The notes beneath the pieces are model-generated. The model was not told the DNA's origin. It made no database searches and saw only the letters and a program-made list of their open reading frames with translations. A stretch of 64,000 bases of DNA from Harriotta raleighana (lineage: Eukaryota). The first letter of the stretch is position 1. The number at the start of each line of letters is the position of its first letter. The stretch is from positions 6,747,786 to 6,811,785 of the forward strand of contig JBNZDD010013724.1 of assembly GCA_050575255.1 (NCBI GenBank). Direction: 5' to 3'. This document shows positions 311 to 59,212 of this stretch, in pieces. The position numbers and the translations under genes are program-made.

Positions 311-808
311 AGGCCAAAACCTTGGGAAAGTATCCTTACTCCACACATAAGAACATAAGAATTAGGAGCAGGAGTAGGCCATTCGGCCCTTCAAGCCTGC
401 CCCGCCATTCAATAAGATCATGGCTGATCTTCTGACCTAACTCTAATTACCTGCCCTATCCCCATATCCCCTAATATCTCTATATATTAAAAATCTATCA
501 GTCTCAGCCTTGAAAATGTTCAAGAACTGAGCATCTACAGACTTCTGGGGTAGTGAATTCCATAAATTCCATAAATTCACTATCCTCTGAGTGAAGAAAT
601 GTTTCCTGAACTCTGTTCTAAACGCCTGATAATAATCCCTCAAAAAATACAATAATCCCAAAATTGGTCAATTCAATCCACCACTGTGTGGGGGACACTG
701 CTGTGCACAATTGGCTGCCACATTTTGCCTACATATATACTGTCAATTCATTTTACAGTATATTCTGTGAAGCGTTTTGAGATGTCTAATGTAAGGATTA
801 TTATTATT
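311..808 (+). mobile_element. 5'-truncated tRNA-derived SINE split by a CR1 insertion (parts ~311-346 and ~624-808)
   Basis: aaaccttggg...tccttactccac / gcctgataataatccc...gtgaagcg...ggattattatt matches the other SINE copies in the window. Confidence 0.85.
345..622 (-). mobile_element. CR1-type LINE 3' end
   Basis: Minus-strand FRTEFRKHFFTQRIVNLWN.LP...FK.E.DRFL; 3'UTR ggccgaatggcctactcctgctcct; (ttcttatg) tail. Confidence 0.9.
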
Positions 809-5590: not shown

Positions 5591-6844
5591 GTAAGCCAGT
5601 ACAATAGCAGGAAGAATCACCATTTCTGCTGTTTAGGAAGCATTGGCAGTCTGCCCAGTTCATAGTAGTCTTTATCCAAAGCTATTGTTCAAAAGGTACA
5701 CGCTTGTAAAAAAGGCTGTTTGTAATTAGAAAAAAAATTCCAATCCAATGTTCTTGAAGTAATTTCCATAATATCAGCAAACCATTAATAACTTCCCTTT
5801 ATGTAGCATCTTTCGTGTAGAGCGATTCACTGTGGTGGGGTCAGTATCAAGCAAGGGACTGAAGGAGGTAACCATAGGCAGAGTTGAAAAGGTAAACCAA
5901 AAATAAGTGATCAATTTCATTAAATTGTCAATGAGCTGAGGAGCAAGGTCTCATGGAGTTCGAACTGGTGCATGTGTGCCTACCCGAGGTTACGTAATGT
6001 TATAATTTTTATTCCACAAGTGACTGACCCGATAACGTAGGAGCGGTGAAGATGGGAGTTAAGCAAGTTGTGGCCATGGCTACAATAGGGAACTCTACCA
6101 ACTCCAACAGATTCTCACTCTTATGTTACCTTTGTGCTGAACACAATGTAAGTAAATGAAATTCAAATGGGAAATGAATCAATGTGCAAACTGAAGTTCA
6201 CCTTGAAACTTTTTCTTCCCAATACAATCTTCTCTCAATGGTAACATTAACTCCATGAAATAGATTTAAAAAACATTGCGGGCGATGACATTATCACGTA
6301 TCATCTAAATATAAAATCCCTCCCACTACATTTCATTGCATTTTCTCGATGCACATACATGTCACCCAAAGATGTTCTAAAATTAATGTATTATGAATAG
6401 CTACCAGGGAGTTAAAAGGTATTAACACAGTCAAGGCCAGGAGGTTGGTTGGATTAAATGCAAGAGGGAAGCTGGAGCAGTTAGTAGTTTGTTTGAATAA
6501 GAAAAGCTTTGGTGCCTTCAATATCCTCCTAAAAATCCTTTAGAATTTATTTGAATAAATTACTTATACAAATTTAAACTTTAATGGTGTAGCTTTTGGA
6601 TTCATGTGTTGAGAAATGTTTCATGTCAAGAAACTTTGACAATGTGCATTGACATGGGCATTCAGCCATTGGCAGTAGGAATTTCTCGCCCGTGATGTCT
6701 TGCCAGTTTTGGAGCTGCCTCAATGATATGAATACATACTGTGAACATTTGTTGCATTAGGGAATGAAACAAGGCATCACATGATTAATAGAAACTTACG
6801 CTTTGAAAAAAAATCATTAATATGTATATATTTTAATTGATGAC

Positions 6845-7148
6845 AATCATCCTTGCATTTCATGCTTTTCATTTTCTCTAGACGTCCCAAAGTGTTTCAC
6901 AGAATATATTGTAAAGTGAATTGACAGTATATTTATAGGTGAAACGCAGCAGACAATTGCACACAGCAGTGTCCCACAAACAGTTTGTGGATTGAGTGAC
7001 CAATTTATTATTGTTTTCTTTTTTCTTGAGGTATTATTATCAGGCATATGGAGTAAGGAAACTTGGCCATGGTTTTGCCCTGCCGGGAATCGAACCCAGG
7101 TCTCTGGCTTGCAAAGTGAGTGCTCTAACCACTGAGCTACAGGACTCC
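6845..7148 (-). mobile_element. Full-length tRNA-Ala(TGC)-derived SINE with L2-like tail
   Basis: A box TAGCTCAGTGG and B box GGTTCGATTCC on the minus strand; body and tail shared with the other copies. Confidence 0.9.
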
Positions 7149-15814: not shown

Positions 15815-16188
15815 CTCTCTGACCTGCTGTCTCCATATCAGCCTGCCCGTACCCTCCGTTCAGCAAATTCAGGCCTGCTCCGCGTCCACCGCCCTAACCG
15901 CCCAACCATCGGTGGCCGGACTTTCAGCCTCTCTGCCCCCACACTCTGGAACTCCATCCTACAGTCCCTCCGCCTTGCCTCCTCCCTTTCCTCCTTCAAG
16001 GCCGGTCTCAAGACCTTCCTCTTCGACTGCGCCTTCGGCTCCCCTCCTGATTCTTCCCCCCTCCCACTCTCCTTCCCTCTCCCCCTATCCCCAACCCTCC
16101 CTCCCTGCTCGGGTCCCGAACTGACTGTTCAGCGCTTTGGGACGTCCTCCCGACGTGAAAGGCACTATACAAGTGTAATTTTGTTGTC
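15815..16188 (+). mobile_element. L2 3' end (ORF2 tail + 3'UTR)
   Basis: LSDLLSPYQPARTLRS...PTIGGRTFS...PTLWNS; terminus cagcgctttgggacgtcctcccgacgtgaaaggcactatacaagtgtaattttgttg. Confidence 0.9.
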
Positions 16189-16237
16189 TGTTCTTGTGAG
16201 ATTGAGCTGAAAGATTGCAATGTTAATGGTAGTTATC

Positions 16238-16636
16238 CTCTATCCCAGAAGGTAGAGTTCAAAGTCCTCACTTTCAAAACCCTCCACGGACTTGCTCCTC
16301 CCTACTTCTGCCAACTCCATACCAATCTCTCCGCGGAGCGCTCCAGCTTGCTCCATGTCGCCTGCTCTGCCTGCCCCGCCATCTGCGGTTTGGCCTTCAA
16401 TCTTTCTATCTCTCTGAACTATCCCACAATCTCTTTGCCTCATCTCTTCCCTTGCTTTCTTTAAAACCTGTCTCGAAACCTATCATGCATTTGGCTTCCC
16501 TTATACTCCCACCCTCCTTGCCCTCCCTCCACTCTTCCTGATCCCATCCTCCAACTGGGGTGCAAATTCTTGACTGCAGCACCTTGGAACATCCTCCTGA
16601 CATGAAAGGCGGTATACAAATGCAAATTGTTGTTGT
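16238..16636 (+). mobile_element. Older L2 3' end, adjacent to the previous copy
   Basis: cccagaaggtagagttcaaagtcctc...ccacggacttgctcc; terminus gacatgaaaggcggtatacaaatgcaaattgttgttg. Confidence 0.8.
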
Positions 16637-16689
16637 AATAAAAAATCTAGGACAGCCCTCAATAACAATAATAAAAATAATCCTTGCAT

Positions 16690-17235
16690 TTAACCTTTAT
16701 AAAACTTTGGTTAGGTGTCAGCTGGAGTACTGTGTTCAATTCTGGTCATCACTCTATAGAAAGGATGTTAAGGCATTGGAAAGGGTGCAAAGAAGGTTTA
16801 CTAGAATGGTACCAGGATTGAGGAACTTCAGTTATAGGGAAAGGTTAGATAGGCTAGGTTTATTCTCTTTGGAACAGAGAAGGTTGAGAGGAGACTTAGT
16901 AGAGGTTTATAAAATCACGAGGGGATTCGACAGGGTGAATAAGGAAAAACTGTTTCCACTGGTGGGTGAACCTGTGACTCGTGGTCACAGATTTAAAATA
17001 GTTTCAAAATGAAGCAGAGGGGAGCTGAGGAGAAACTTTTTCACTCAGTGGGTTATTTGAATCTGGAATGCATTGCCTAAAAAGGTGGTGGAGGCCGATT
17101 CGATAACAGCTTTTAAAAGACAATTAGACTTTTATTTAGGGAGAACGGGTCTGTTAGATTATAGGGAGAAAGCTGAGCAGTGGGATTGAGTTGCTCTTTT
17201 CAAAGACTAGATGGGCCGAATGGCCTCTTTTTGTG
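16690..17235 (+). mobile_element. CR1 LINE ORF2 C-terminus and 3'UTR
   Basis: LYKTLVRCQLEYCVQFWS...LERVQRRFTRMVPGL...RRLRGDL.EVYKI; ends in (attctatg) repeats; in-frame stop present. Confidence 0.95.
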
Positions 17236-17304
17236 CCGTAAAATTCTATGATTCTAATATAGCACCAACTTTCACGTCATGATTTCTCAAAGCACTTCAC
17301 AGAA

Positions 17305-18005
17305 AGACAAACCCGGAAATTACAGGCCAGTCAGCCTTACTTCGGTAATAGGAAAACTATTGGAGACCATGATCTGGGGCAGAATAAATCTCTATTTAGA
17401 GGAACACAAGGTAATTAGAGATAGCCAACATGGATTTGTTAAAGGCAAATCTTGCGTAACAAATCTAACAGAATTTTTTGAAGAGGTGACTGCGAGGGTT
17501 GATGAGGGAAATGTGGTGGACGTTATTTACATGGATTTCAAAAAGGCTTTTGACACAGTACCGCATAAGAGATTAATAAAAAAATTAGAGGCCCACGGTA
17601 TTAAGGGGACAGTGGCAGTTTGGATTAAGAACTGGCTGCGTGACAGAAAGCAGGGGGTGGTGGTTAATGGGAGTTTCTCAAAATGGAAGGAGGTGTGCAG
17701 CGGTGTCCCCCAGGGATCGGTATTGGGACCACTGCTCTTTCTAATATATATTAATGATCTGGACTTGGGCATAGAGAGCACTATTTCCAAGTTTGCAGAT
17801 GATACAAAGTTAGGTAGGGTAGGAAATAGTGAGGAGGATTGTAACCAATTGCAATAGATATACACAGAATGGTGGAATGGGCTGACATGTGGCAGATGGA
17901 TTTCAATGTGGATAAGTGTGAGGTGATATACTTAGGTAGGAAAAAATGATAGGAGGCAATATAGACTTGGTAGCTCAATCTTAAGGGAGATGAAGGTACA
18001 GAGAG
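17305..18005 (+). mobile_element. CR1 LINE reverse-transcriptase fragment (inactivated)
   Basis: PGNYRPVSL, QHGF, DFKKAFD, GVPQGSVLGP and FADD motifs; stop at 17855-17857. Confidence 0.95.
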
Positions 18006-18010
18006 ATTAT

Positions 18011-18293
18011 GAGACCTGTGTTCGAATCCAGGCAGATCAGGGCGAAACCTTGGGCAAGTTTCCTTACTCCACATGCCTAATAATAATCCCTCCCCAAAAA
18101 GATAAATAAATAATAAAATTGGTCGTTTCAATCCTCGACTGTTTGTGGGACACTGCTGTGCGCAATTGGCTGCCGTGTTCCGCCCACAAATATACAGTCA
18201 ATTCACTTTACAGTATATTCTGTGAAGCGCTTTGGGACGTTGATAAGATGTGAAAAGCGCTATATCAAATGCAAGGATTATTATTATTATTAT
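18011..18293 (+). mobile_element. tRNA-derived SINE (A box missing), inserted in or after the CR1
   Basis: B-box-like gttcgaatcc; body and tail as in the other copies; (ATT)n end. Confidence 0.88.
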
Positions 18294-21920: not shown

Positions 21921-22845
21921 TCCCAATGGACTGCAAATACAAAAAGAACTATACTACAGGATGACTTACTCACCGCCTTAGGGAAAGAATTGGGGGAATA
22001 ACAGTATATACATGGCGGCAAGTACGTATGACTAATGTTATACATTTATATTTTTCTTTATTAGGCTTCAAAAAGAAAATTCTTCTACTAATTAGGCTCC
22101 ATTCATGAATGTCTTATATGATCAAATTATAATCATGTTCAGTTTTCTTTTTACTACAGATGAATGCCAGATTAAAGCAAATTCCACTTGTTATCTACAG
22201 ATAATAGAAGATATAATATCTTTTTAGAAAGCTTCACAATATTTATACAAGCAAGGACAACCTGAAAGATGAGTGATTTGATAACATAAATCCCTTTAGA
22301 GAATAAACAGTCACTGTTCACTTTTTAAGACTCCTACACTTTGGGGGTAACCTATTAAACAGCTGATTTCAACAGAATCTTTCAAATTCAGTTCTGCCAG
22401 TCTGTTTTCCATCTGAAAACTGTATTGAAAAATGGACTTTAGATCCATTTGGTTTAGTTTATATTCTGCGCTTAAGGAGATGTTCTGGACAATTTACTTT
22501 GCAGTATGATGGCTTGCTATAGTCTGTTTACGTAACAGTAGTACTCACTACATACTAATCATATTTTATTTTATTTTATACACATGTCCCATTACTGGAC
22601 TTGTGGGGGAAGGTGGGGGGGAAAGGGGGAAGGGCATTATTATTTCTACACTTATGCCACTGCCCCCTCACTGTACACATAATTCCACTGCTCAGTAAAG
22701 TAGAGCACTGAATAGGATCTTCTTATCCTAAGTGGACACTGGCAATGTTGGTAACTGTACCACTAATAATAACAATAATCCCAGCATTTGATATAGTGCT
22801 TTTCACATCTTCTCAAAACACTTCACAGAATATACTGTAAAGTGA

Positions 22846-23093
22846 CAAAAACAGAAATCGCTGGGAGCAATCAGAAGATCATGCAGCATCTATGGAGAAA
22901 GGAAAAGTGAGTCAACGTTTCGGGTCCAAGACCCTTCATCAGAACTGACGAAGGTTCTGACAAATGGTGGTGGACCCGAAACGTCGACTCACTTTTCCTT
23001 TCTCCAAAGATACCTGACCTGCTGAGTGTTCCCAGTGATTTCTGTCTTTGTTTCAGATTTCCAGCATCTGCAGTACTGTATTTTGCATTTTTG
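22846..23093. mobile_element. Non-autonomous Penelope-like (inverted pseudo-LTR) mini-element with hammerhead motifs
   Basis: ~95-nt inverted arms; 14-bp direct repeat atactgtaaagtga at 22832-22845 and 23094-23107; CTGANGA...GAAACGT(T/C)-type cores on both strands. Confidence 0.75.
22910..22946 (-). ncRNA. Minimal type I hammerhead ribozyme motif (dimer-type)
   Basis: Minus strand AGUU-CUGAUGA-A-GGGUC-UUG-GACCC-GAAAC-GUU-GACU: intact core, 5-bp stem II, 4-bp stem I, palindromic AACGUU in place of stem III. Confidence 0.65.
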
Positions 23094-23289
23094 ATACTGT
23101 AAAGTGAAATTGACTGTACATTTGTGGGTGGAACACTGCAGCCGATTGCGCACTGCAGTGTCCCACAAACAGTCATGGATTGATTATTTGTTTTTCTTGA
23201 GGGATTATTATTAGCCGTATTGAGTGAGGAGTAAGGAACTTGCTCAGGGTTTCACCCTGCCTGAAACTGAACCAAGGTCTCTTGCTTGT

Positions 23290-23382
23290 TTGGGTCCCCC
23301 TTGCTCGGGTCCCGACCTGACTATTCAGCGCCTTGGGATGTCCTCCCGAAATGAAAGGCACTCTAAAAATGTAATGTTGTTA
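23290..23382 (+). mobile_element. L2 3' terminus
   Basis: gctcgggtcccgacctgactattcagcgccttgggatgtcctcccgaaatgaaaggcact, near-identical to 16107-16170. Confidence 0.8.
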
Positions 23383-23525
23383 TCTGACTCTCCGCTTTGT
23401 CGGACTACCCTCCTTTAATCTCTCCCAATATCTTTGCACAGGGTATTAGTAATAGGTGTGTGAGAGAGTTTTGACTTCCATAGAGTGGGGTAAAAGGGTC
23501 TATGAAATGCAAGGATTATTATTCT

Positions 23526-23930
23526 GAGGTCTGTAGCTCAGTGGTTAGAGCACTCGTCTTGCAAGCGAGAGACTTGGGTTCGATACCCGGAAGGGCGAAA
23601 CCTTGGGCAAGTTCCCTTATTCCACACACCAGATAATAATCCCAGCAGTTTGTGGTACAGTACTGCATGCAATTGGCTGCCGCATTTCGCCCACAGCAGT
23701 CAATTCACTTNGCTTGGGTTCGATACCCGGAAGGGCGAAACCGTGGGCAAATTCCCTTATTCCACACACCAGATAATAATCCCAGCAGTTTGTGGCACAA
23801 TACTGCATGCAATTGGCTGCCGCATTTCGCCCACAGCAGTCAATTCACTTTACAGTATATTCTGGGAAGTGCTTTGAGAGTCTAGAAGACATGAAAAGCA
23901 CTATATCAAAATACAAGGATTATTATTATT
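23526..23930 (+). mobile_element. tRNA-Ala-derived SINE (internal segment duplicated across N at 23711)
   Basis: tgtagctcagtggttagagcac...cttgcaa...gggttcgatacc head; (ATT)n tail. Confidence 0.88.
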
Positions 23931-24146
23931 TATTAATGTATTTATTTCCCNGTGCTTTGAGAGTCTAGAAGACATGAAAAGCGCTATATCAAAATACAAG
24001 GATTATTATTATTTATTAATGTATTTATTTCCCCCACAGATTTATTTTCCTGCAGTAAAAATTAACAATAACAACAACAAAATTACACTTGTATAGCACA
24101 TTTAAATTATCTGTTTATTTCCCCCCCCCACCCCCCACCCCCCCAG

Positions 24147-24341
24147 AAGATAGACGAAGAAAATGAAGCTAATTTGCTAGCTGCTCTCACGGAGACTCTG
24201 GACAGTATCCCAGTAGATGAGGATGGATTGCCTTCATTTGATGCACTAACAGATGGGGATGTGACCAATGTCGACGATCCCAGCCCTCCCTCAGTGTCTG
24301 ACTGCACCCCTCCAACCCCAGAGGCTGAAGAGTCGTCTCTA
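24147..24341 (+). CDS. PPARGC1A: PGC-1alpha exon 3, KIDEENEANLLAALTETLDSIPVDEDGLPSFDALTDG...EESSL
   Basis: C-rich tract + cag| acceptor; CTA|gtaaga donor; 195 nt; contains the L1 leucine motif. Confidence 0.98.
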
Positions 24342-26463: not shown

Positions 26464-26989
26464 GTAAGAATAGGATGGCAATATAATGTTGATAAGAGTT
26501 TTGATGGTAATAGTGCACCCAAACCGACAACATTGACTGTGAAGAACTTGGGGCCCTGGGCTTGTTAAACTGTTTGTTTCAGTTCCCTTAGCACTGATGT
26601 AGTGCTTCTGTAGTCCAGCCACCTCTCCAGCCTTTGAGAGGTGCACCAATCTTTGAGAGGTTCCCAAACATTATCGTTGTCTCGATTGGTACAATGGCAA
26701 TCCCCCTACCACATTGACACTAAGTATGGCATATAAATGGGCATTAGCAAATTAGTCCAAACATAAACAATAGGAAGGCTCCAAATAATCATTTGAAGTC
26801 AGACAACAAAATATGTCAAAACAATCTCCTAGATTACAATATCCCGATTGATAATTTATGAAGAAATTCAGGAAATTCACTCGAGAAAGACAGGCTCTGT
26901 GAACTGGATAAAATAGCAAGCTAGACCACTGCNGGAAATTCACTTGAGAAAGACAGGCTCTGTGAACTGGATAAAATAGCAAGCTAGAC

Positions 26990-27330
26990 CACTGCTTTAT
27001 TTGACTTTAGACCTTGGTTCTAATCCAACTGAGACAAGATGGATCAGAGTACTGTATCCTGTCTAATGGCAGTTAAGAGTTCCAAGTGAAATGGGTCACA
27101 GGAGGTTCAAACTAGTTCCTAGCTGGCACGAGTCCAGAACATAAAGCCATCCTTCATTTGGCACGAGTTGAGCAATCTCACTCCTCGAGGCTGATAAGGA
27201 TGGCTGGCATACAAAAGGAACGTTTCACATTGTTGTTGTAGAGGTGCCCTTCTCAGGTTGAATTTAAGGACATTGTTCGGACTTTATAAAAGGAGCTGAA
27301 ACTACACTAACCAGTTCTATTAAAGAACTG
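26990..27330 (+). mobile_element. LF-SINE-like ancient element
   Basis: Ordered motifs ggttctaatcca...gtgaaatg...agttcctag...ttggcac...gaggc..aagga...tagaggtgccct...aggtt...acattg resemble the LF-SINE consensus as recalled. Confidence 0.6.
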
Positions 27331-36700: not shown

Positions 36701-38323
36701 GCTTAATGCTTTGATTAAAATTGTGACACTGTCCTGGGAATATTGGAAAACAAGTGAAACTGTTTTAGGAGCTATTGGATTTTGGCTTCTTTTATGCGGC
36801 TTCCTGTATAAATCAATATGAACCTGGTAGATTATATTGCTTCTGGGATGATTGTAAAAATGAAAGGGATTGACTGGATGATTCTATAGAAGTTATTCAC
36901 CAAAATGCAATGAAAATTGTGCTGAATAGTTACAATTAGTGAATCACATCTCAAACTTTATAACACATTACTTTTCTATACTTTGGAATGGGCATGAAGC
37001 AAATCATATTTTTCCTCTTTTTTTCTAAAAGTACTGAAGGGAAATGTAATCAATAGTTGACACTGATGATTGATGCAGAAATGTAATGAGTTAGATACTA
37101 TATAATCATGAACCGGCTTTCAATGAGTTCTTTGGTGGATTAATCACAATTGATAGTACATTGTATTTCCTAAAATTTCATATGCATTTATACAAAGTCA
37201 CACAAAGAAGCTTTGCGAATATTCTGACCCATGGCAAGTGAGTTGAATGGCGGAAATCACTACAGTATGAAAAATGGATCTATTTGAATGCTCAGTGTTC
37301 AGGAATTATAGCCTAGGGGTTCCTTGTGACATCTGACAAGTGGTCCACTAAATCCATCTAAAGAAAACTAGAATAACTGGGAAGGATTTTAGCTAAGTTT
37401 CAGTATAAGATATTATTTGCCTATATTTACAGAACTCTTGAAAATATGAATACTAATGTCAAACACACACATGTAATATTCTAGAATGAATGGCACGTTT
37501 AAAAATAGGATTCATTTTGAAAATTTTAAGCATCACTGACATTGTTTACGCAAAATGAATTTCCCAACACAATTACTGTCTGTGTAATATATATTAGCTA
37601 TTAGTTACTTAGTGCAGCATGCAGCGTGAATGCAACCAGAAAAGAGGCGGCAATGGAATAATAACCCAAATTACATTCCATATAATGTTGCAATGCAGGG
37701 TGTTTGTGCGTGTATAATGACAGGGCTATAAACTGCTGGTTGCCAGCCTTCAGCATAGAACAGCCATCTGTCTGTGCATAAATCTATCAACAGTGGTGGG
37801 CATCAAGAGATATAGAAGATATACAGTAGTAAGAAATATTTGAATATTGCAGATTTAATAAGCTATTTTATCAGCAATATTCTGTTTGCTGGTTTGAACA
37901 AAATCTACAGGACTGGTTAAGACAAACAAAGAATTAATGTTTCAGTTGGATCCATGTATGCACTATTTGGTGAAAGGAGATCCTTTATAGTCTTATATGG
38001 CTGCCTATATTGGGGGAAATCTGAAGTGAATACTATATCATTTATAAAACTCAGACTACATTAGTAGCACTTCATTTAAATAATGAACAGCAATGAGACA
38101 GGAACATTGTAATCAAGTCGTTTAGAATCTGTTGCACTCTGCATTAATGCAAATTGTGCTGTCAGCCACACAAGGCAACACTTTACTCAGTTCATCACAA
38201 TGTGATTAGCTTTCGGTACCTGGTTATTTGAAAATGGCCAGTGTTTCGAAATGCTCTTAATTTTAATGGTTAGCCTTCAATCACTGACTGGTGTGAAAAG
38301 ATATGCTGTCATTTTCATTTCAG

Positions 38324-39269
38324 GTCTAACTCCACCAACCACTCCTCCACACAAAGCCAATCAAGATAATCCCTTTAAGACTGCAGTCAAACATAAGGCT
38401 ACTTGCAGTTCTTCAGTACGCAGCCCACCACCAAAGAAATCACGTTTAAGTGATTCTGCCTCTAATCCTCCGCCAAGCAGTCCTGCAAAGAAGGATCCCG
38501 AACAAACTGAACTCTACGCCCAGCTTAGTAAGACTTCAGTTTTACCCAGTGCACTTAGTCTTGGCCGAAATGAGGAAAGAAAAATGTCCCGGTCAAGCAC
38601 ACGGCTCTTTGGTGACCATGACTACTGCCAGTTTATAATTGCAAAGGCAGAATCGCTAAATATCAGAGATCCCTGCAGATCACGAGATCCCAAAGACATT
38701 AAACTCCACTGCAAAGACCCTTTGCCTAGGCAGCAACAACAAAACATTATTTCTGTCAGTCAAGTGTGCAGCAAGGAAAATCAACAACATAATATGCAGG
38801 CCCTTTCCTTCTCTAATAGCAAGACACAGCTAAAAGACCAAGAAATCCGGGCTGAGCTAAACAAGCACTTTGGCCATCCTAGCCAAGCTTTCTTTGATGA
38901 AGTAGAAGATAAGGCGAACCATCAGCGAGAAAAAGACTTTTGCTTTGAATATTATTCAAAGTTGCCTACATTTCTCAATGCAGGGATGTCTATGGATGGT
39001 GTGTTTGATGAAAGTGATGATGAAACAGACAAATTTCTTTATCCATGGGATGGAACACCAGATGGGTTCTTGTTAGAAAGATCTTGCTCTCGTTCTTTGT
39101 CCAGCTCCCCAGGCAGTGATTCTGTCTCCTCAGTGAAGGCTTTTGCCTCTTTTCAAAGAACATGCAGGACAAGGTCTAGATCTAGGTCTTATCCAAGATC
39201 TCGAGCCTCTTCTCGCTCCTCCTGCTCTCGTTCTCGATCAAGATCTCCATATTGCAGATCCTCCTCCAG
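38324..39269 (+). CDS. PPARGC1A: PGC-1alpha exon 8 (GLTPPTTPP degron, DHDY HCF-binding motif, start of RS domain)
   Basis: Lies within ORF 38251..39273; tttcag| acceptor; AG|gtaagg donor; 946 nt; motifs GLTPPTTPPHKANQDNPF, FGDHDYCQ, IRAELNKHFGHP, RSRSRS. Confidence 0.98.
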
Positions 39270-42200
39270 GTAAGGAAATGCATTTTCTTTCAAATCTTTG
39301 AATTGGATGGGAATATCTAGCGTTTCTAGAAATATTAAAGATGAACAATGAGATCTAATTTGTGATTTTTTTTTTAGAAGTATCCCTTTAGAACTCCCGT
39401 TGGGATTCTGCTTTGTTGGAGTAAACCAAAGCAGATTTCCCAGGGTTGGGAGCTGAAGTATTTCTGTTCATCGAAACAAGTCACCATTTCTACAAAGAGG
39501 ATTCCTTAATAAGGAATCCTATTTGTGTTCAGAAATTCCACAAGTTAGACCCCAACATTTCAGTCAGAGGCAAACAATACTTGTTATACAACCTGAGGAT
39601 GGTGGTGAAACAAGAAACTAAAAAGACAGGACAAGTTTGTGTCAACAAAATAATTCAGGTTTATGAGATTTATAGATATTCAACAAAGGGATCTCTGAGA
39701 AATTGGATGGGTAGATTTAATTGATTGATGGTCTACTCCAGTCTGAAATTGTTGCTATGGGATCTAACATGTAGCAATTTCTAACAGGATTGCTTAATAA
39801 GGAAACAAAATGGAAATGACTTCTGGTAATTGCAAGTATTGCTATCTGAGCCGTGGGAACTACACTCCAAAGTAAATGATTTTGGAGAGGAGCCAATACA
39901 TGCATCAAAATACAATTCCACCATGATGCAATTTCAATTCCTTGTTAGAATTTGTTGACTATTAGATTCTGGGGTTACACATATATTTTCTCTTTATTAT
40001 TTAAATCTTTACCATCCTAACAATAAAATTATAAAATGTGCAAAAGAATGGCAGTTTCCCCAGCCACTGACCAAGCTTTTGCGCTATTTGGTAATGGTAA
40101 AATATTAATATACTGTACATTAGCCATCTTGCTTCCTCTCTTTCTAACTGAAAGTACTTCCATTGGAGCTTAGATGACTTTTTCCCTCTTTAACATATTG
40201 ATGGAGATCAGTTCAGTGGCAGAGATAGATTTATTTCTAGGTTGGCTTACTGGATGCCTCACATGGTGGTTAATGGATGAAGTAACCTAAATGTAGCTGT
40301 GTTTTACAGGACAATGTTTAACACCACCAAATTGAGGACAGGAGGAGAGGGGTACATGCTGACAGATTAAGTGACCGCGAGAGTATATAATGTCAGATCA
40401 TTGGACATCAAAAATGAAAGGACTATATAGAATTCAGAAGAATTCTATCTCCAATAAGTTTGATGGTACCATTCACATGCATTCAAATGCCATGCCATTT
40501 ACATTGCCTTAAATTAGTCTATTAATTCAGGTATTTCTTAGATCAGTGCCCATTTATCCTATCAAATAGAGATAGTTTTCTTTACTGGAAAGTTTTGTGC
40601 ATGAGCACTGAGTTTGACACCATAATCTTGTTTCATAGATTATACAATTTTTAAGAATCATGACTATGTTGATGAAAGTTGATTTGGGACGACTTTTCAT
40701 ATTGACAATTGATTAAAAAAAAGGACATACTTGACGAATAGGAATTTACACAGGATTGAGACAGAATTATTTCAAGCGAAAGATAATTGATGTAATGGGT
40801 GTGGAAAAGGCTGTTGAAGGAAGCAGCAGAAGCTGGTTCAGGCAGCAATGAGATGTGTTCCTGGAGAAAACAGGATGGATGTGGTGAGAAGGAATAAAAG
40901 CTTTAGTACCAAAATGGTGAAGGCCTATTGCCTTTCTTCTGTTCATTTAATAGATTTATTTTGCCATAGAGTAAAATGGAACATTGATAGAAAATAAATT
41001 TGCTGTTTGACTCAACAAGGTTAATACAGAGAACAACAGAACAGACAGCGACCCCATGCCAAGGCAGAACCAGGAAAGATTTGGGATTGACAATGTTTGG
41101 CCAGATGGTTGAACGTGAAATACTAGCTGACATAAACTTGCATCATAAATGGGGACTTAGAATAGTCTACAAGCTTTCTGAAGGTAATTAAGTGAGCAGA
41201 CGCTATAGCTTGCTGCTATCTTTAGCTATGGATTCCAGATTGTTTACTGTAGTAGATTACATGATGTTATTAGAACTAATGATTTAAATGTAGAAATATG
41301 GGCATCCAGGCTTTTGTAGTTATTTAAAATTGTTTTATTGCAGTGCATAGAATATTGAACCTAGAGATAACTTACAACATCTGCATCCTGTGTTGAAATG
41401 GTCTTTGCTGTTGGTGGAGGTGATTCATAGCTGACAGGCCACTATGCCATTTCTTACGCTGTGAGAGTGATGTAGGTAGTTGAGTTCAACCTCGATCAGT
41501 AACAGGAGCCTCACGTAGAGAACAGGAGAGGTGAGTGAAGAGAAGTAAAGGGCATTGAGTGCATGTCCTTCAGTCCCTCAAGACGCCATGGTCCGTCTGC
41601 CCAGACTTCAGGCTGCAGCTAATCTAATGACTTCCTCTGGAAAGCAGATTTTATTCATTACCTAGAAATGCTGCTTTACAATTAAAGTGTGTCTCGGTGA
41701 TTCTGAGACTGAAGTATAAATAACTTTTTTTTCAGTTTCATTTCTGTTAGGTACTTTTCTCATTGATTCACTAATTGCTTGTTTTTGTTTATGTCTGGCT
41801 GGCTATGTTAACCACTTCTATGAATAGAATCCACAAATGTGATCATCTGGTGTATGGCGATTTCATAATATAATTTCTATATAGTTTTTTAAAAACATTT
41901 TTCTTCCCCCTCCTCGTGTTATTTTCCCTCTCTTTGTTTGCCCCCCACCCTCCTATCATGCCATGACATTCCCTGATTGAGCAGCAGTCTACTGTTGGGC
42001 TTTCCTGCCCTGTAACCAGCTGCCAGAAGCAGCCTGCGTTGACTTGTGCTCCGTGTTTTAGTTTACACGTACATGGGGTAAGTGCCTAGACTCCTCTCAG
42101 CACTAGCCCCAACGCTCATCTCCCAAACACCCTGTCTGAGAACAGGAACATAGCGTGTGAAAAATCCCCAACACATGCTCATGCCCTGCTTCAATCTGGC

Positions 42201-44136: not shown

Positions 44137-44367
44137 AAAAACACAAAATACTGCAGATGCTGGAAATCTGAAACAAAAACAAGAAGTCGCTGGCAACACT
44201 CAGCAGGTCAGATAGCATCTATGGAGAAAGGAAAAGCGAGTCAACGTTCCGGGTCCATAACCCTTCGTCAGAACCCAATTCTGATGAAGCGTCGTGGAGC
44301 CAAAACGTTGACTCGCTTTTACTTTCTCCATAGATGCTGCCTGACCCTCTGAGTTTTGCCATACAAA
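44137..44367. mobile_element. Second palindromic Penelope-like mini-element (opposite orientation to 22846-23093)
   Basis: Same arms (gcatctatggagaaaggaaaag.gagtcaacgtt...); hammerhead-like cores at 44239-44275 (-) and 44277-44313 (+); attaagt on both flanks. Confidence 0.75.
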
Positions 44368-48129: not shown

Positions 48130-48692
48130 GTATGATTCCAAAACAACAAGATTTCTAGTATTGTAAATGTCTTTGTAGGAATTTGAAATAGAATTGATAA
48201 ATCATATATTGTTTGCAGGAAGAGGTTTGCAATTCAACCCATTGTGTCTACTGGTGCTTGCTCCATTCCAATCTATCGTAAACCTGTTGTTCTATTTTTC
48301 CAACTATCTTTTACATTATGTTTCCTCAAATGTTTATCCAATTTCCTTTTAAAACCTGTACTTTAATTGATTTCAACAGTAATATTTGATAAAACATTCC
48401 ACATTATAACAACCTTATATGTAAACAAAGGTTTTTCTAAATGTTTACCTCTGAAAATAATTTTTTCTATTCTCTTGTCACTGATTAACAATCATGAGAG
48501 ATAGTCTTTTTCTATTTATCTGCAACGAAAGATGGTTCCAAATCTCCATTGCTTTNTTTTTTTCTATTCTCTTGTCATTGATTAACAATCATGAGAGACT
48601 TTTTCTATTTATCTGCAACGAAAGATGGTTCCAAATCTCCATTGCTTTGGCAGATGTTTTTGTTTTCTGCAAAGAAATTCATGAACTATTAT

Positions 48693-48860
48693 GATAATAA
48701 ATTGGTCATTTAATCCATGACTGTTTGTGGAATTGGCCGCAGTGTTTCACCCACAAAGTATACAGTCAATTCATTTGACAGTATATTCTATGATGCACTT
48801 TGAGACATCTCAAAGACGTAATATGGCACTATATCAAATGCAAGGATTACTATTATCATC
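48693..48860 (+). mobile_element. 3' half of the tRNA-derived SINE
   Basis: ttggtcattttaatccatgactgtttgtgg...cagtcaattca...gcactatatcaaatgcaaggatta. Confidence 0.8.
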
Positions 48861-50747
48861 AAAAATGTACATATTTACAACAGGAAGGTTCTAAGTTACA
48901 TATTGGGCAACATTATTTTATGTCTTGACTTGTCTACAAATAGAGTTACTACACTTCATGGTAAATCCTAGTAAATTCGAGGATTATTATTATGCAAAAA
49001 TGTAATTGTATATAGTTGCATCATTAAGCAGACAGAAGCCCAGAGTGCAACACAGAAGACATAAAAACAAGCTGATTTGCAGAAGTTTTGCTCCATTTTA
49101 ATGGTATTGTAAATTTGTAAATTGGGAAGAGTTACATTTAAAACTAGAACATTATTGCTACTAACTGATTTCTACCATACTTCCCTAACTTAATGATTGA
49201 ATAGATGTTATGGATTCCATTCATTAATTTCAAATTAATGTCATTTGTTAAACATAAGCAAATTCAATGACCTCCTTAAGTTCGTGGAATGCTAATTGTA
49301 CTCATTTAAGCGAGTTCCAAATATGGGCTAATTTTAGAAGATATAACCAGCATTTCAAAAGTAAATGACCAGTTTGCAATTGTTATTACAGACTATCAAG
49401 AAAGTGAAGCATTCAATCTTTCTAATGTTGGAGGATATGAATAGCAGCAAATGTTTCTGAACTTGGTCAAGTAGAAGCAATGCTGTAGCCCTACTTATGA
49501 TTGTCCCTTTAAAAGCAATTAGAAACCCATTTGTAGACTGCTTATTTTACTGTCCTCTTTTCAAAGCGCATATGTCATTGTAAGAGCATCAGTGAACTTC
49601 TGTAAAATTCTAAATGCTTTTTCAATCCCCAGATTGGAGGCTAATAACATCATTTCAACTTCTGTAGCAACATTTATTACAGATAATATTCAGAGTAATT
49701 TGTTAATGCATCCTTGATACAGAAGCATTGGTTTAAGCAAAATTCATCTAAATTTTGCAATAATTAGATTTAAAATAATCCAAATTGGAAACAAATTCCA
49801 TTCTTTGATTAGCAATGCTTTCTCTGGAGATGTAGAAAATAATTACTTTCAGTAATGAAGTATACCACTACTTTGCAGTTTAGAGTAGCCAACTGTAGTA
49901 CAGCGTGACCTTGTTGTAAGGCATCTCTCTAAAGCAAATGGATACTTATAACTCAGGTATATTATAGCTCTGTTGACCTGTGGTTATTGAAAATATTGTA
50001 CAATTTCTGGTGTATGCTTCCAGCCAGCCAGGCTGTGCTAAAATAGCATCATCAACCTGCTGACCCAGGATTGGGATTGGTGACCATTTTACTGCTGACT
50101 GTTTTGTGCAAGGGTCTAATTTTTAGATTCAGAACAAAACGTAATGGGGCCATTGTGCGCCGTGTTTCAACACCCATAAGTGTATACTTAAGAAATAAAT
50201 ACTGAATTCTAATGAATCCCTAAAAATGAAAGGCAGATTTTTCCCAGTCAGTTAAGAAACTGATCTTACTGTTGGGATGTGCAGTTACGCAGGAATAACA
50301 TACCTGCTAAGAGAGGCCAGTTTAAAATTCTATCTGGCCTTGCTAAACCATGCCAATAGTCCTGCATATAAGATCTAGGCAAATTAGTGGAAAATAAAAG
50401 CACACAAGATGTGACATGATACAATAGAGTTTTGAATTAATCCTTTGCCTGATTAGATGGGTACATATTCTATTGGAAATAAGTTAATTAACAAGATATA
50501 ATAAAGTATTACCACATAGGAAAACAATAACACCTTACCTGATAGATCAATAGATGATTATAAATGATTAAGTTAGGATGATCAAAATAAGATTCTAATA
50601 GCTAACAAAAATTTTTTATTATTGCTATTTGTTAATTAGATCTATTACTTGTCATCTGCCATTTCTTGAGCATTCACCAGTTTGACAGGTTAGGTTATAG
50701 ACCTAAATAAGTGGAAATATCTATAACATGATTGCCAATATCAAATA

Positions 50748-57873: not shown

Positions 57874-58181
57874 GGAGCACTGTAATTCACTGGTTAGAGC
57901 ACTCGCCTTACAAACGAGAGATCTGGATTCGATTCCTGGTAGGGTGAAACCTTGGGCAAGTTTCCTTACTCCATATGCCTGATAATAATCCTTCAAGAAA
58001 ATATAACAATAATGAAATGGTCATTTCAATCCACGACTGTTTGTGGAGCAATGCTGTGCACAACTGGCTGCCACGTTTCACTCACAAATATACAAATTCA
58101 TTTTACAGTACATTCTGTGAAGCGCTTTGAGACGTCTCGAAGACGTGAAAAGCACTATATCAAATGCAAGTATTATTATAA
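57874..58181 (+). mobile_element. Full-length tRNA-derived SINE
   Basis: tggttagagcactcgcc...ttcgattcctgg...gtgaagcgctttgagacgtc...gtgaaaagcactatatcaaatgcaag(TAT)n. Confidence 0.9.
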
Positions 58182-58492
58182 TCGGTAAAGTGGGGTGACT
58201 TGAGTGTTTGTAGGCAAACATACTATTTATATAAGTGTTTTGATTTTATGTCATTAACATCTGGTGGCATTTCTTTATAAACTGAATAACATTTTCCTTT
58301 TGCCATGTCCCATGAGCAGCCTATGTGAAATACTTAGATTTGCATTCCTCAGCTGATCATACGTTTCAGATGTGGCCCATTTGCACTAAAGGATTGACAG
58401 TGACTGATCTGATTTCAACAAACAGGATACTTATGGTCATGAGGGAAGAGAGCAGACTCTGAATTTAAATTCTAGTCATAAAGTTGCAGTAA

Positions 58493-58600
58493 TTCTAATG
58501 AAGGGTGTTATCTGATACATTAGTCTATTTTTCCTTTCAGATGCAGATCCACCTACTGTGTATTTCCAGCATTGTTTTTTATTTCAGATTTTCAGCATTA
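58493..58600 (+). mobile_element. Older, single-arm remnant of the Penelope-like mini-element family
   Basis: ttctaatgaagggt...cagatgc...cctactgtgtatttccagcatt...tttcagattttcagcat matches the right arm and tail of 22955-23075. Confidence 0.5.
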
Positions 58601-59104: not shown

Positions 59105-59212
59105 ACAGGCATGTGGAGTAAGGCAACTTGCCCAGTGTTTCACCCTGCCGATAATCTAATCCAGGTCTCTTGCTTGCGAGGTGAGTGCTCCAGCCACTGA
59201 CCTACAGGAGTT
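59105..59212 (-). mobile_element. 5' part of the tRNA-derived SINE
   Basis: ggcatgtggagtaagg...ccaggtctcttgcttgcgaggtgagtgctc...ccactga.ctacagga. Confidence 0.8.

Follow-up and report, generated by a model that had tools for sequence, protein, structure and literature searches.

The 248-nt insert that interrupts a tRNA-derived SINE copy in an intron of a PPARGC1A-like gene was interpreted as a non-coding remnant derived from an endonuclease-type Penelope-like element (PLE), a reading to which we assign a probability of roughly 0.8. The assignment is by anatomy, no reading frame of a PLE having been detected in the window. Its make-up is very likely that of an inverted pseudo-LTR (pLTR) end joined head to head with a direct pLTR end and a tail, with no coding part. 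The window, by which the whole 64-kb stretch of DNA analysed is meant, also held a second palindromic member (copy B) and a strongly decayed third one (copy C); the insert itself is called copy A where the three have to be told apart.

The site of insertion was defined by comparison with sister SINE copies. The two copies of the target-site duplication (TSD), at 22832-22845 (left, SINE sequence) and 23094-23107 (right), are identical at 14 of 14 nucleotides; a given 14-mer would occur by chance with a probability of about 1e-8. When the insert was excised in silico, the resulting junction aligned continuously with six other SINE copies in the window (18038-18292, 57910-58177, 6896-7111, 622-782, 23770-23938 and 48712-48859), which served as intact empty-site controls and in each of which the 14-mer or a near variant is present once. 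As removal of the insert restores a continuous SINE match, the 14-bp duplication is regarded as a true TSD, confirming the perfect 14-bp TSD and the SINE-splitting 248-bp insert of the preliminary description. The host copy carries one additional A 3' of the right TSD. On the minus strand, the interrupted SINE consists of its 3' part (22761-22845) and its body (23094-23289), from which most of the tRNA-like head displayed by sister copies is absent; tRNA-like SINE heads at 7075-7146 and 23527-23598 were the two matches obtained with Rfam at the gathering score in the window, both to tRNA. At least eight copies or pieces of this SINE family were located in the window (622-788, 6825-7148, 18011-18292, 22761-23289, 23527-23947, 48694-48876, 57874-58183 and 59112-59176), with pairwise identities of 71-83% among the seven that were aligned. 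A dispersed repeat at 23296-23386, with a counterpart at 16100-16190, adjoins the interrupted SINE at the place of the missing head, and other unclassified dispersed repeats were seen at 347-538/62650-62841, 1-114/15815-16038/29042-29256 and 51430-51587/52388-52542. The claim that the insert is younger than the SINE held in so far as it postdates its host copy, with the qualification that the insert is itself old: its two arms differ in 14 of 81 columns (8 of 66 outside CpG), a divergence at which a perfect 14-bp TSD has a probability of about 0.16. The insert is later than its host SINE copy, yet not recent.

The host gene runs on the plus strand from 1981 to about 54.1 kb, with exons at about 1981, 5408, 24147, 24790, 26181, 38206-39270, 47.4-48.2 kb and 54.0 kb, placing the insert in an intron, some 1.05 kb ahead of the exon at 24147, with its intact hammerhead antisense to the gene. 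LxxLL-type motifs, an RS-rich exon (38206-39270) and RRM exons were recognised, together with a weak Pfam RRM match, and PDB searches for a gene name returned 0 matches and 43 generic RRM matches, neither of which supplied a name. From its motifs we tentatively take the gene to be a PGC-1alpha (PPARGC1A) orthologue, and the repeats of the window are presumably of cartilaginous-fish type. Four near-identical (95-99%) direct duplications, at 23573-23850, 23869-24033, 26871-26995 and 48461-48648, are each split by a single N and most probably reflect the assembly of overlapping contig ends rather than true tandem repeats.

Between the two TSD copies, a 100-nt arm read leftwards (22846-22945, minus strand) and a 98-nt arm read rightwards (22954-23051, plus strand) stand head to head, each pLTR-like and each with its 3' end outward, and a 42-nt tail (23052-23093, plus strand) follows the right arm only. 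The preliminary description had given two inverted arms of about 95 nt and a short tail, which these measurements bear out. The tailed arm carries a 3-nt deletion relative to the other arms. Pairing between the inverted arms reaches 88% complementarity over 58 nt and 84% over 37 nt, and the head-to-head junction is marked by a near-perfect 22-nt palindrome (22933-22954). The tail-less arm ends exactly at the point where the tail starts on the other arm, 68 nt past the scissile bond as against 66 nt in the tailed arm, whose tail ends at 108 nt. At the start of the tail (23056, plus strand), a pyrimidine-rich stretch followed by CAG resembles a splice acceptor on the sense strand of the host gene, by a simple pattern only, about 1.1 kb ahead of the real exon.

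The left arm contains a minimal type I hammerhead motif (22910-22946, minus strand) that keeps 13 of 13 core positions and fits the published consensus, with a helix I of 4 bp, core position C3 at 22942, a helix II of 5 bp with a 3-nt loop, GAAA, and a CG stub for helix III; cleavage is predicted after 22914 (GUU). It was the only sequence in the 64 kb, on either strand, to match a minimal-hammerhead descriptor (minus strand, 22942), as compared with a mean of 0.03 matches, and a maximum of 1, in 100 shuffles. The corresponding motif of the right arm (22953-22989, plus strand) is damaged, with G8 changed to A at a CpG site, G10.1 changed to U and helix II broken. The intact minus-strand core and the damaged plus-strand core reported in the preliminary description were thereby recovered, and its reading of them as hammerheads of the minimal type I, in which a palindromic stub stands for stem III, is supported. 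The partial third core that it had placed at the centre is present as sequence (22945-22954) and was rejected as a separate ribozyme, being the right half of the 22-nt junction palindrome. A search with Rfam models identified no hammerhead in the window, either at the gathering score or at E<=10, where the six matches were all miRNA-type hairpins below the gathering score. Neither a score at the gathering threshold nor a stable helix III, as in canonical Rfam hammerheads, was found, and no Rfam match is to be expected because the motifs are without helix III.

A single ORF combining a telomerase-like RT with GIY-YIG, as in autonomous PLEs, was found neither in the insert nor among 114 ORFs of the window. 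These comprised 112 of the 121 frames of at least 72 aa (the nine spanning an N were excluded) and two shorter exon frames, a scan that is blind to shorter or frameshifted PLE debris. Pfam detected no PLE RT and no GIY-YIG in them, the two matches being to RVT_1 and RRM_1, and the RVT_1 match (17258-17854), the only RT match in the window, is not a Penelope RT. We take it to be CR1-like. LINE reading-frame fragments extend over 16542-17854 (plus strand), with the RVT_1 match at E 4e-30. In the left arm, a candidate ATG right behind a stop codon opens a frame that runs to the arm end (22845-22890, minus strand), and a candidate ATG in the same setting opens a short frame in copy B (44137-44219, minus strand). 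Such a frame may represent the start of a lost PLE ORF, as in rotifer pLTRs; no protein match was returned for the left-arm and copy B frames in the search. When the frame of the tailed arm was compared with longer proteins, neither of two candidates proved to be a PLE protein. The single match of an exhaustive search of 1.84 billion proteins, PLE-sized at 826 aa (E 7e-7), was discarded as a bacterial-type HYR-repeat protein in which the score accumulates from one repeat to the next, and a family-motif scan of bacterial and archaeal genomes gave 0 matches, a result that is uninformative.

The assignment to PLEs is based on the correspondence of the insert with published terminal anatomy. In rotifer, fly and other PLEs, a head-to-head inverted pLTR, a tail at one end, a junction palindrome and 8-10-bp TSDs have been described (PMC8557442, PMC3846280, PMC2377424), and hammerhead pairs on opposite strands, 100-700 bp apart, are reported from Schistosoma (PMC4209133). 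The features found here were a minimal type I hammerhead in the repeat, an inverted head-to-head pLTR with a junction palindrome, a tail of the 30-40-nt type on one end (42 nt in copy A, about 36 nt in copy B) and, in copy A, a TSD at an AT-rich target with ATT; the TSD of copy B was not significant. The hammerhead fits the PLE consensus, down to the bulged base that precedes helix II and the CG stub, which is palindromic (PMC4209133). The Penelope-like origin put forward in the preliminary description is thus supported by anatomy. Counting against it, the TSD of 14 bp exceeds the 8-10 bp of rotifer PLEs (PMC3846280).

A possible mechanism is offered by the protein of an anole PLE, which was reported to cut and extend both strands with a preference for 5'-ATT-3' and to start reverse transcription at two internal sites bounding the tail, the hammerhead being dispensable for insertion in vitro (PMC11167929). 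The outer arm ends of the insert fit what two such internal starts would give, the end of the tail-less arm coinciding with the tail start of the other. In all five SINE sequences that match the target 14-mer pattern and are uninterrupted, ATT follows both inferred nicks; the host copy has it at +1 on one strand and at +2 on the opposite one. A random 14-nt stagger with ATT would be met in 0.14% (exact) or 0.5% (+1/+2) of cases, a post hoc test on one site in which the five SINE copies represent one ancestral sequence and not five events. In the proposed sequence of steps, a PLE GIY-YIG/RT protein acting in trans would nick both strands of the AT-rich SINE site just 5' of ATT, 14 nt apart; synthesis at one nick would start from the outer internal start site and give the tailed end, synthesis at the other would start from the inner site and give the tail-less end, and repair would leave the 14-bp TSD.

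Copy B (44137-44361, minus strand) is 85% identical to the insert over 209 nt. The two have the tail in common and a centre that is shared to within 5 nt (a 5-nt indel), and both cores of copy B are broken. The tail-less arm of copy B is shorter by about 18 nt or has decayed beyond alignment (P 0.27 for a continuation), and its TSD candidate, matching at 11 of 14 positions (P about 0.1), was not accepted. Copy C (58493-58598, plus strand) is a strongly decayed single arm with tail, detected by nhmmer at E 1.3e-5 (composition bias 13.7), with no match in the reversed control and P<0.001 against shuffles. An inverted partner of copy C was not detected, either as a hairpin (z +2.2) or in three alignments (P 0.09-0.28). 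Copy C is much older than the palindromic copies.

The hammerheads of the insert are, on the folding predictions and the pattern of mutation, probably passengers, an ordinary pLTR motif that has been carried along. Metazoan minimal hammerheads are described as needing a same-strand partner or the help of a protein (PMC4209133, PMC11167929). The two motifs here are on opposite strands, and the required dimer is therefore impossible within one RNA. Read-through RNA of either strand was predicted to fold into a hairpin of -143.3 or -129.5 kcal/mol (z -18 and -12), and none of 200 shuffles was as stable. Enforcing the hammerhead fold gave -97.6 kcal/mol, a cost of about 46 kcal/mol, and pair probabilities for the hammerhead helices in the minus-strand read-through RNA were 1e-11 to 1e-30. 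An isolated arm also favours another fold, with a probability of 6e-5 for the exact hammerhead fold, and co-transcriptional folding should give no help, as the antisense arm is always transcribed first. Across the four arms of copies A and B the core is broken in three, and mutated cells are as frequent in the motif (14/144) as downstream of it (17/176); helices I and II showed 0 compensatory changes in 9 pairs, in a sample of four arms that is small for a test of structure. The most plausible view of the intact left core is that it happens to have survived neutral decay, and on account of the opposite strands, the burial in a hairpin of about 100 bp and the neutral decay, this copy most likely has no ribozyme function. 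The working ribozyme element implied by the preliminary description is thus not borne out, the motif being no more conserved than its flanks. It is very improbable that the minus-strand hammerhead cleaves, whether alone, as an intermolecular dimer or with the help of a protein, to release small or circular RNAs in the manner of retrozymes. In its favour are the intact left core, the perfect palindrome formed by the 6-nt stub of that core (duplex -3.5 kcal/mol) and the cleavage of the anole PLE hammerhead in the presence of its protein (PMC11167929); against this, no second motif lies on the same strand, the hairpin hides the existing one, the motif decays neutrally and runs antisense to the host gene, minimal hammerheads on their own are reported to show no cleavage in vitro (PMC4209133), and only one of nine Xenopus dimers is reported to cleave (bioRxiv 10.64898/2026.07.22.740005).

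With respect to the route by which the palindrome was formed, the two possibilities named in the preliminary description (movement as a unit, and truncated or inverted insertion) were both kept live, and loss of an ORF between direct pLTRs was added as a third. Copying of an already palindromic, ORF-less unit is tentatively favoured. In the four arms of copies A and B, 81 ungapped columns contained 4 arm-specific, 2 copy-specific and 0 cross variants, and without CpG and junction-edge columns (66 columns) the counts were 2, 1 and 0; in simulations from identical arms, two arm-specific sites had a P of 0.006-0.02 and one copy-specific site a P of 0.11-0.20. The arm-specific variants common to both palindromic copies thus weakly suggest copying as a unit, on the basis of 2-4 sites in the 4 arm sequences of two palindromic copies. 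The centre and tail end common to A and B also favour it, whereas the 18-nt shorter outer end of copy B (P 0.27), the 5-nt shift of its centre, the two copy-specific variants, the lone arm of copy C and the non-significant TSD candidate of copy B speak against it. Several of these observations would be expected if each palindrome had instead been formed afresh at its insertion through extreme 5' truncation and inversion of a full-length PLE RNA, the inversion arising by priming at both nicks or by folding back at the palindrome of the junction, with no non-autonomous family behind it. This is possible but doubtful. A 5' truncation with an adjacent inverted copy is a usual PLE outcome (PMC8557442, PMC8969392, PMC2377424), self-priming at junction palindromes has been proposed (PMC3846280), and the outer end and centre of copy B differ, two variants are common to both arms of one copy and copy C has a single arm. 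However, all four arms of A and B end within a few nucleotides 5' of the core, and arm-specific variants shared by A and B would be unexpected if the arms had initially been identical (P 0.006-0.02).

Less likely again is a full-length insertion (inverted pLTR, pLTR-ORF-pLTR, tail and TSD) whose ORF was later lost by recombination of the direct pLTRs, as in solo LTRs. Rotifer Pen2a is reported to have all of these parts, with a TSD of 9 bp and an inverted pLTR that is shorter, and solo pLTRs have also been described (PMC3846280); such a deletion would yield exactly the structure observed and retain the TSD. Nevertheless, insertions that arose independently would all need a short pLTR with a fixed 5' boundary, whereas the truncation of upstream copies is reported to vary (PMC2377424), and no ORF debris was found among the 114 ORFs of the window. 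Turning again to the copied unit, the suggestion that the palindrome of about 250 bp is itself a MITE-like, mobile, non-autonomous retroelement of the Penelope class is a speculative one that we consider rather unlikely. In such an element, the tailed arm would supply the first internal RT start on the RNA, the copied inverted arm would show the same signal on the cDNA and set the second-strand start, and a dimeric PLE protein would define both ends while the hairpin kept the ribozymes off. Least probable of all is that the insert is a MITE, a DIRS-type inverted-repeat element or a miRNA hairpin in which the hammerhead-like motif is coincidental. Long inverted arms with a TSD do look MITE-like, and six sub-threshold matches to miRNA models were obtained. 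Inverted repeats at both termini, as in MITEs, were not found, however, since the arms are not terminal on the right, where the 42-nt tail lies outside the inverted repeats; DIRS elements are described as having no TSDs (PMC8969392), the miRNA matches are far under the gathering score and reflect generic hairpins, the motif is rare by chance (0.03 per shuffle), and a lone arm with tail exists in copy C.

As a single decayed intronic repeat, the insert is of little importance; its value is that of a clean footprint. From the empty site in the sister SINEs, both inferred nicks can be placed at ATT with a spacing of 14 nt, and the positions of the outer ends agree with the pair of internal RT starts that the anole element uses in vitro (PMC11167929). 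The formation of inverted ends and the completion of PLE integration are described as open in the literature (PMC11167929, PMC8557442, PMC3846280). Should one junction prove common to many copies, the family would provide a minimal test substrate and a palindromic class of non-autonomous PLEs. If the palindrome is indeed mobile, it would correspond to the retrozymes, with a head-to-head in place of their head-to-tail arrangement, and would give studies of the second half of PLE integration a minimal substrate that occurs in nature. Inserts of this kind would, from the predicted fold, also put about 100 bp of double-stranded RNA into the host pre-mRNA.

Among known systems, the insert resembles endonuclease PLEs with an inverted pLTR and tail, namely rotifer Pen2a and Pen3a (PMC3846280), the general scheme (PMC8557442) and D. 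virilis Penelope (PMC2377424), a likeness of anatomy. Head-to-head arms, a junction palindrome, a 30-40-nt tail, a TSD, an AT-rich target and a hammerhead in the repeat are shared with these elements, for which pLTRs alone are reported to be sufficient cis signals for mobilisation in trans (PMC3846280). Unlike them, the insert has no ORF or captured DNA between its repeats, its arms are about 100 nt as compared with about 200 nt, and its TSD is 14 bp as compared with 8-10 bp. With the minimal type I hammerheads of metazoan PLEs (Cervera and De la Pena, PMC4209133) it shares the core, the bulged base, the G10.1-C11.1 pair, the palindromic CG stub, the short helix I, the U-rich 3' flank and the occurrence of opposite-strand pairs, although its cores are about 15 nt apart as against 100-700 bp there; no cartilaginous-fish entry was seen in the 56-motif alignment of that source. 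The ATT-directed cleavage of both strands and the two RT starts of the Poseidon element PAc of Anolis carolinensis (PMC11167929) would yield both outer ends seen here. PAc is described as autonomous and tandem, with an ORF that starts in helix II (PMC11167929), whereas the candidate start in three arms of the present copies lies about 25 nt past the scissile bond.

The non-LTR retrozymes are likewise non-coding, carry a type I hammerhead and have a proposed origin from PLE pLTRs (PMC7229834; bioRxiv 10.64898/2026.07.22.740005). They are described as head-to-tail tandems with ribozymes on the same strand that release circles, whereas neither head-to-tail units nor two or more same-strand hammerheads were found in the insert, whose head-to-head arms and opposite-strand motifs should preclude the release of circles. 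Judged by title and the beginning of the abstract, none of the papers listed names an ORF-less palindromic PLE family, in a literature search that covered few subscription papers and neither Repbase nor Dfam. The architecture and the motif have both been published already, and the insert adds a new case of this known PLE pattern.
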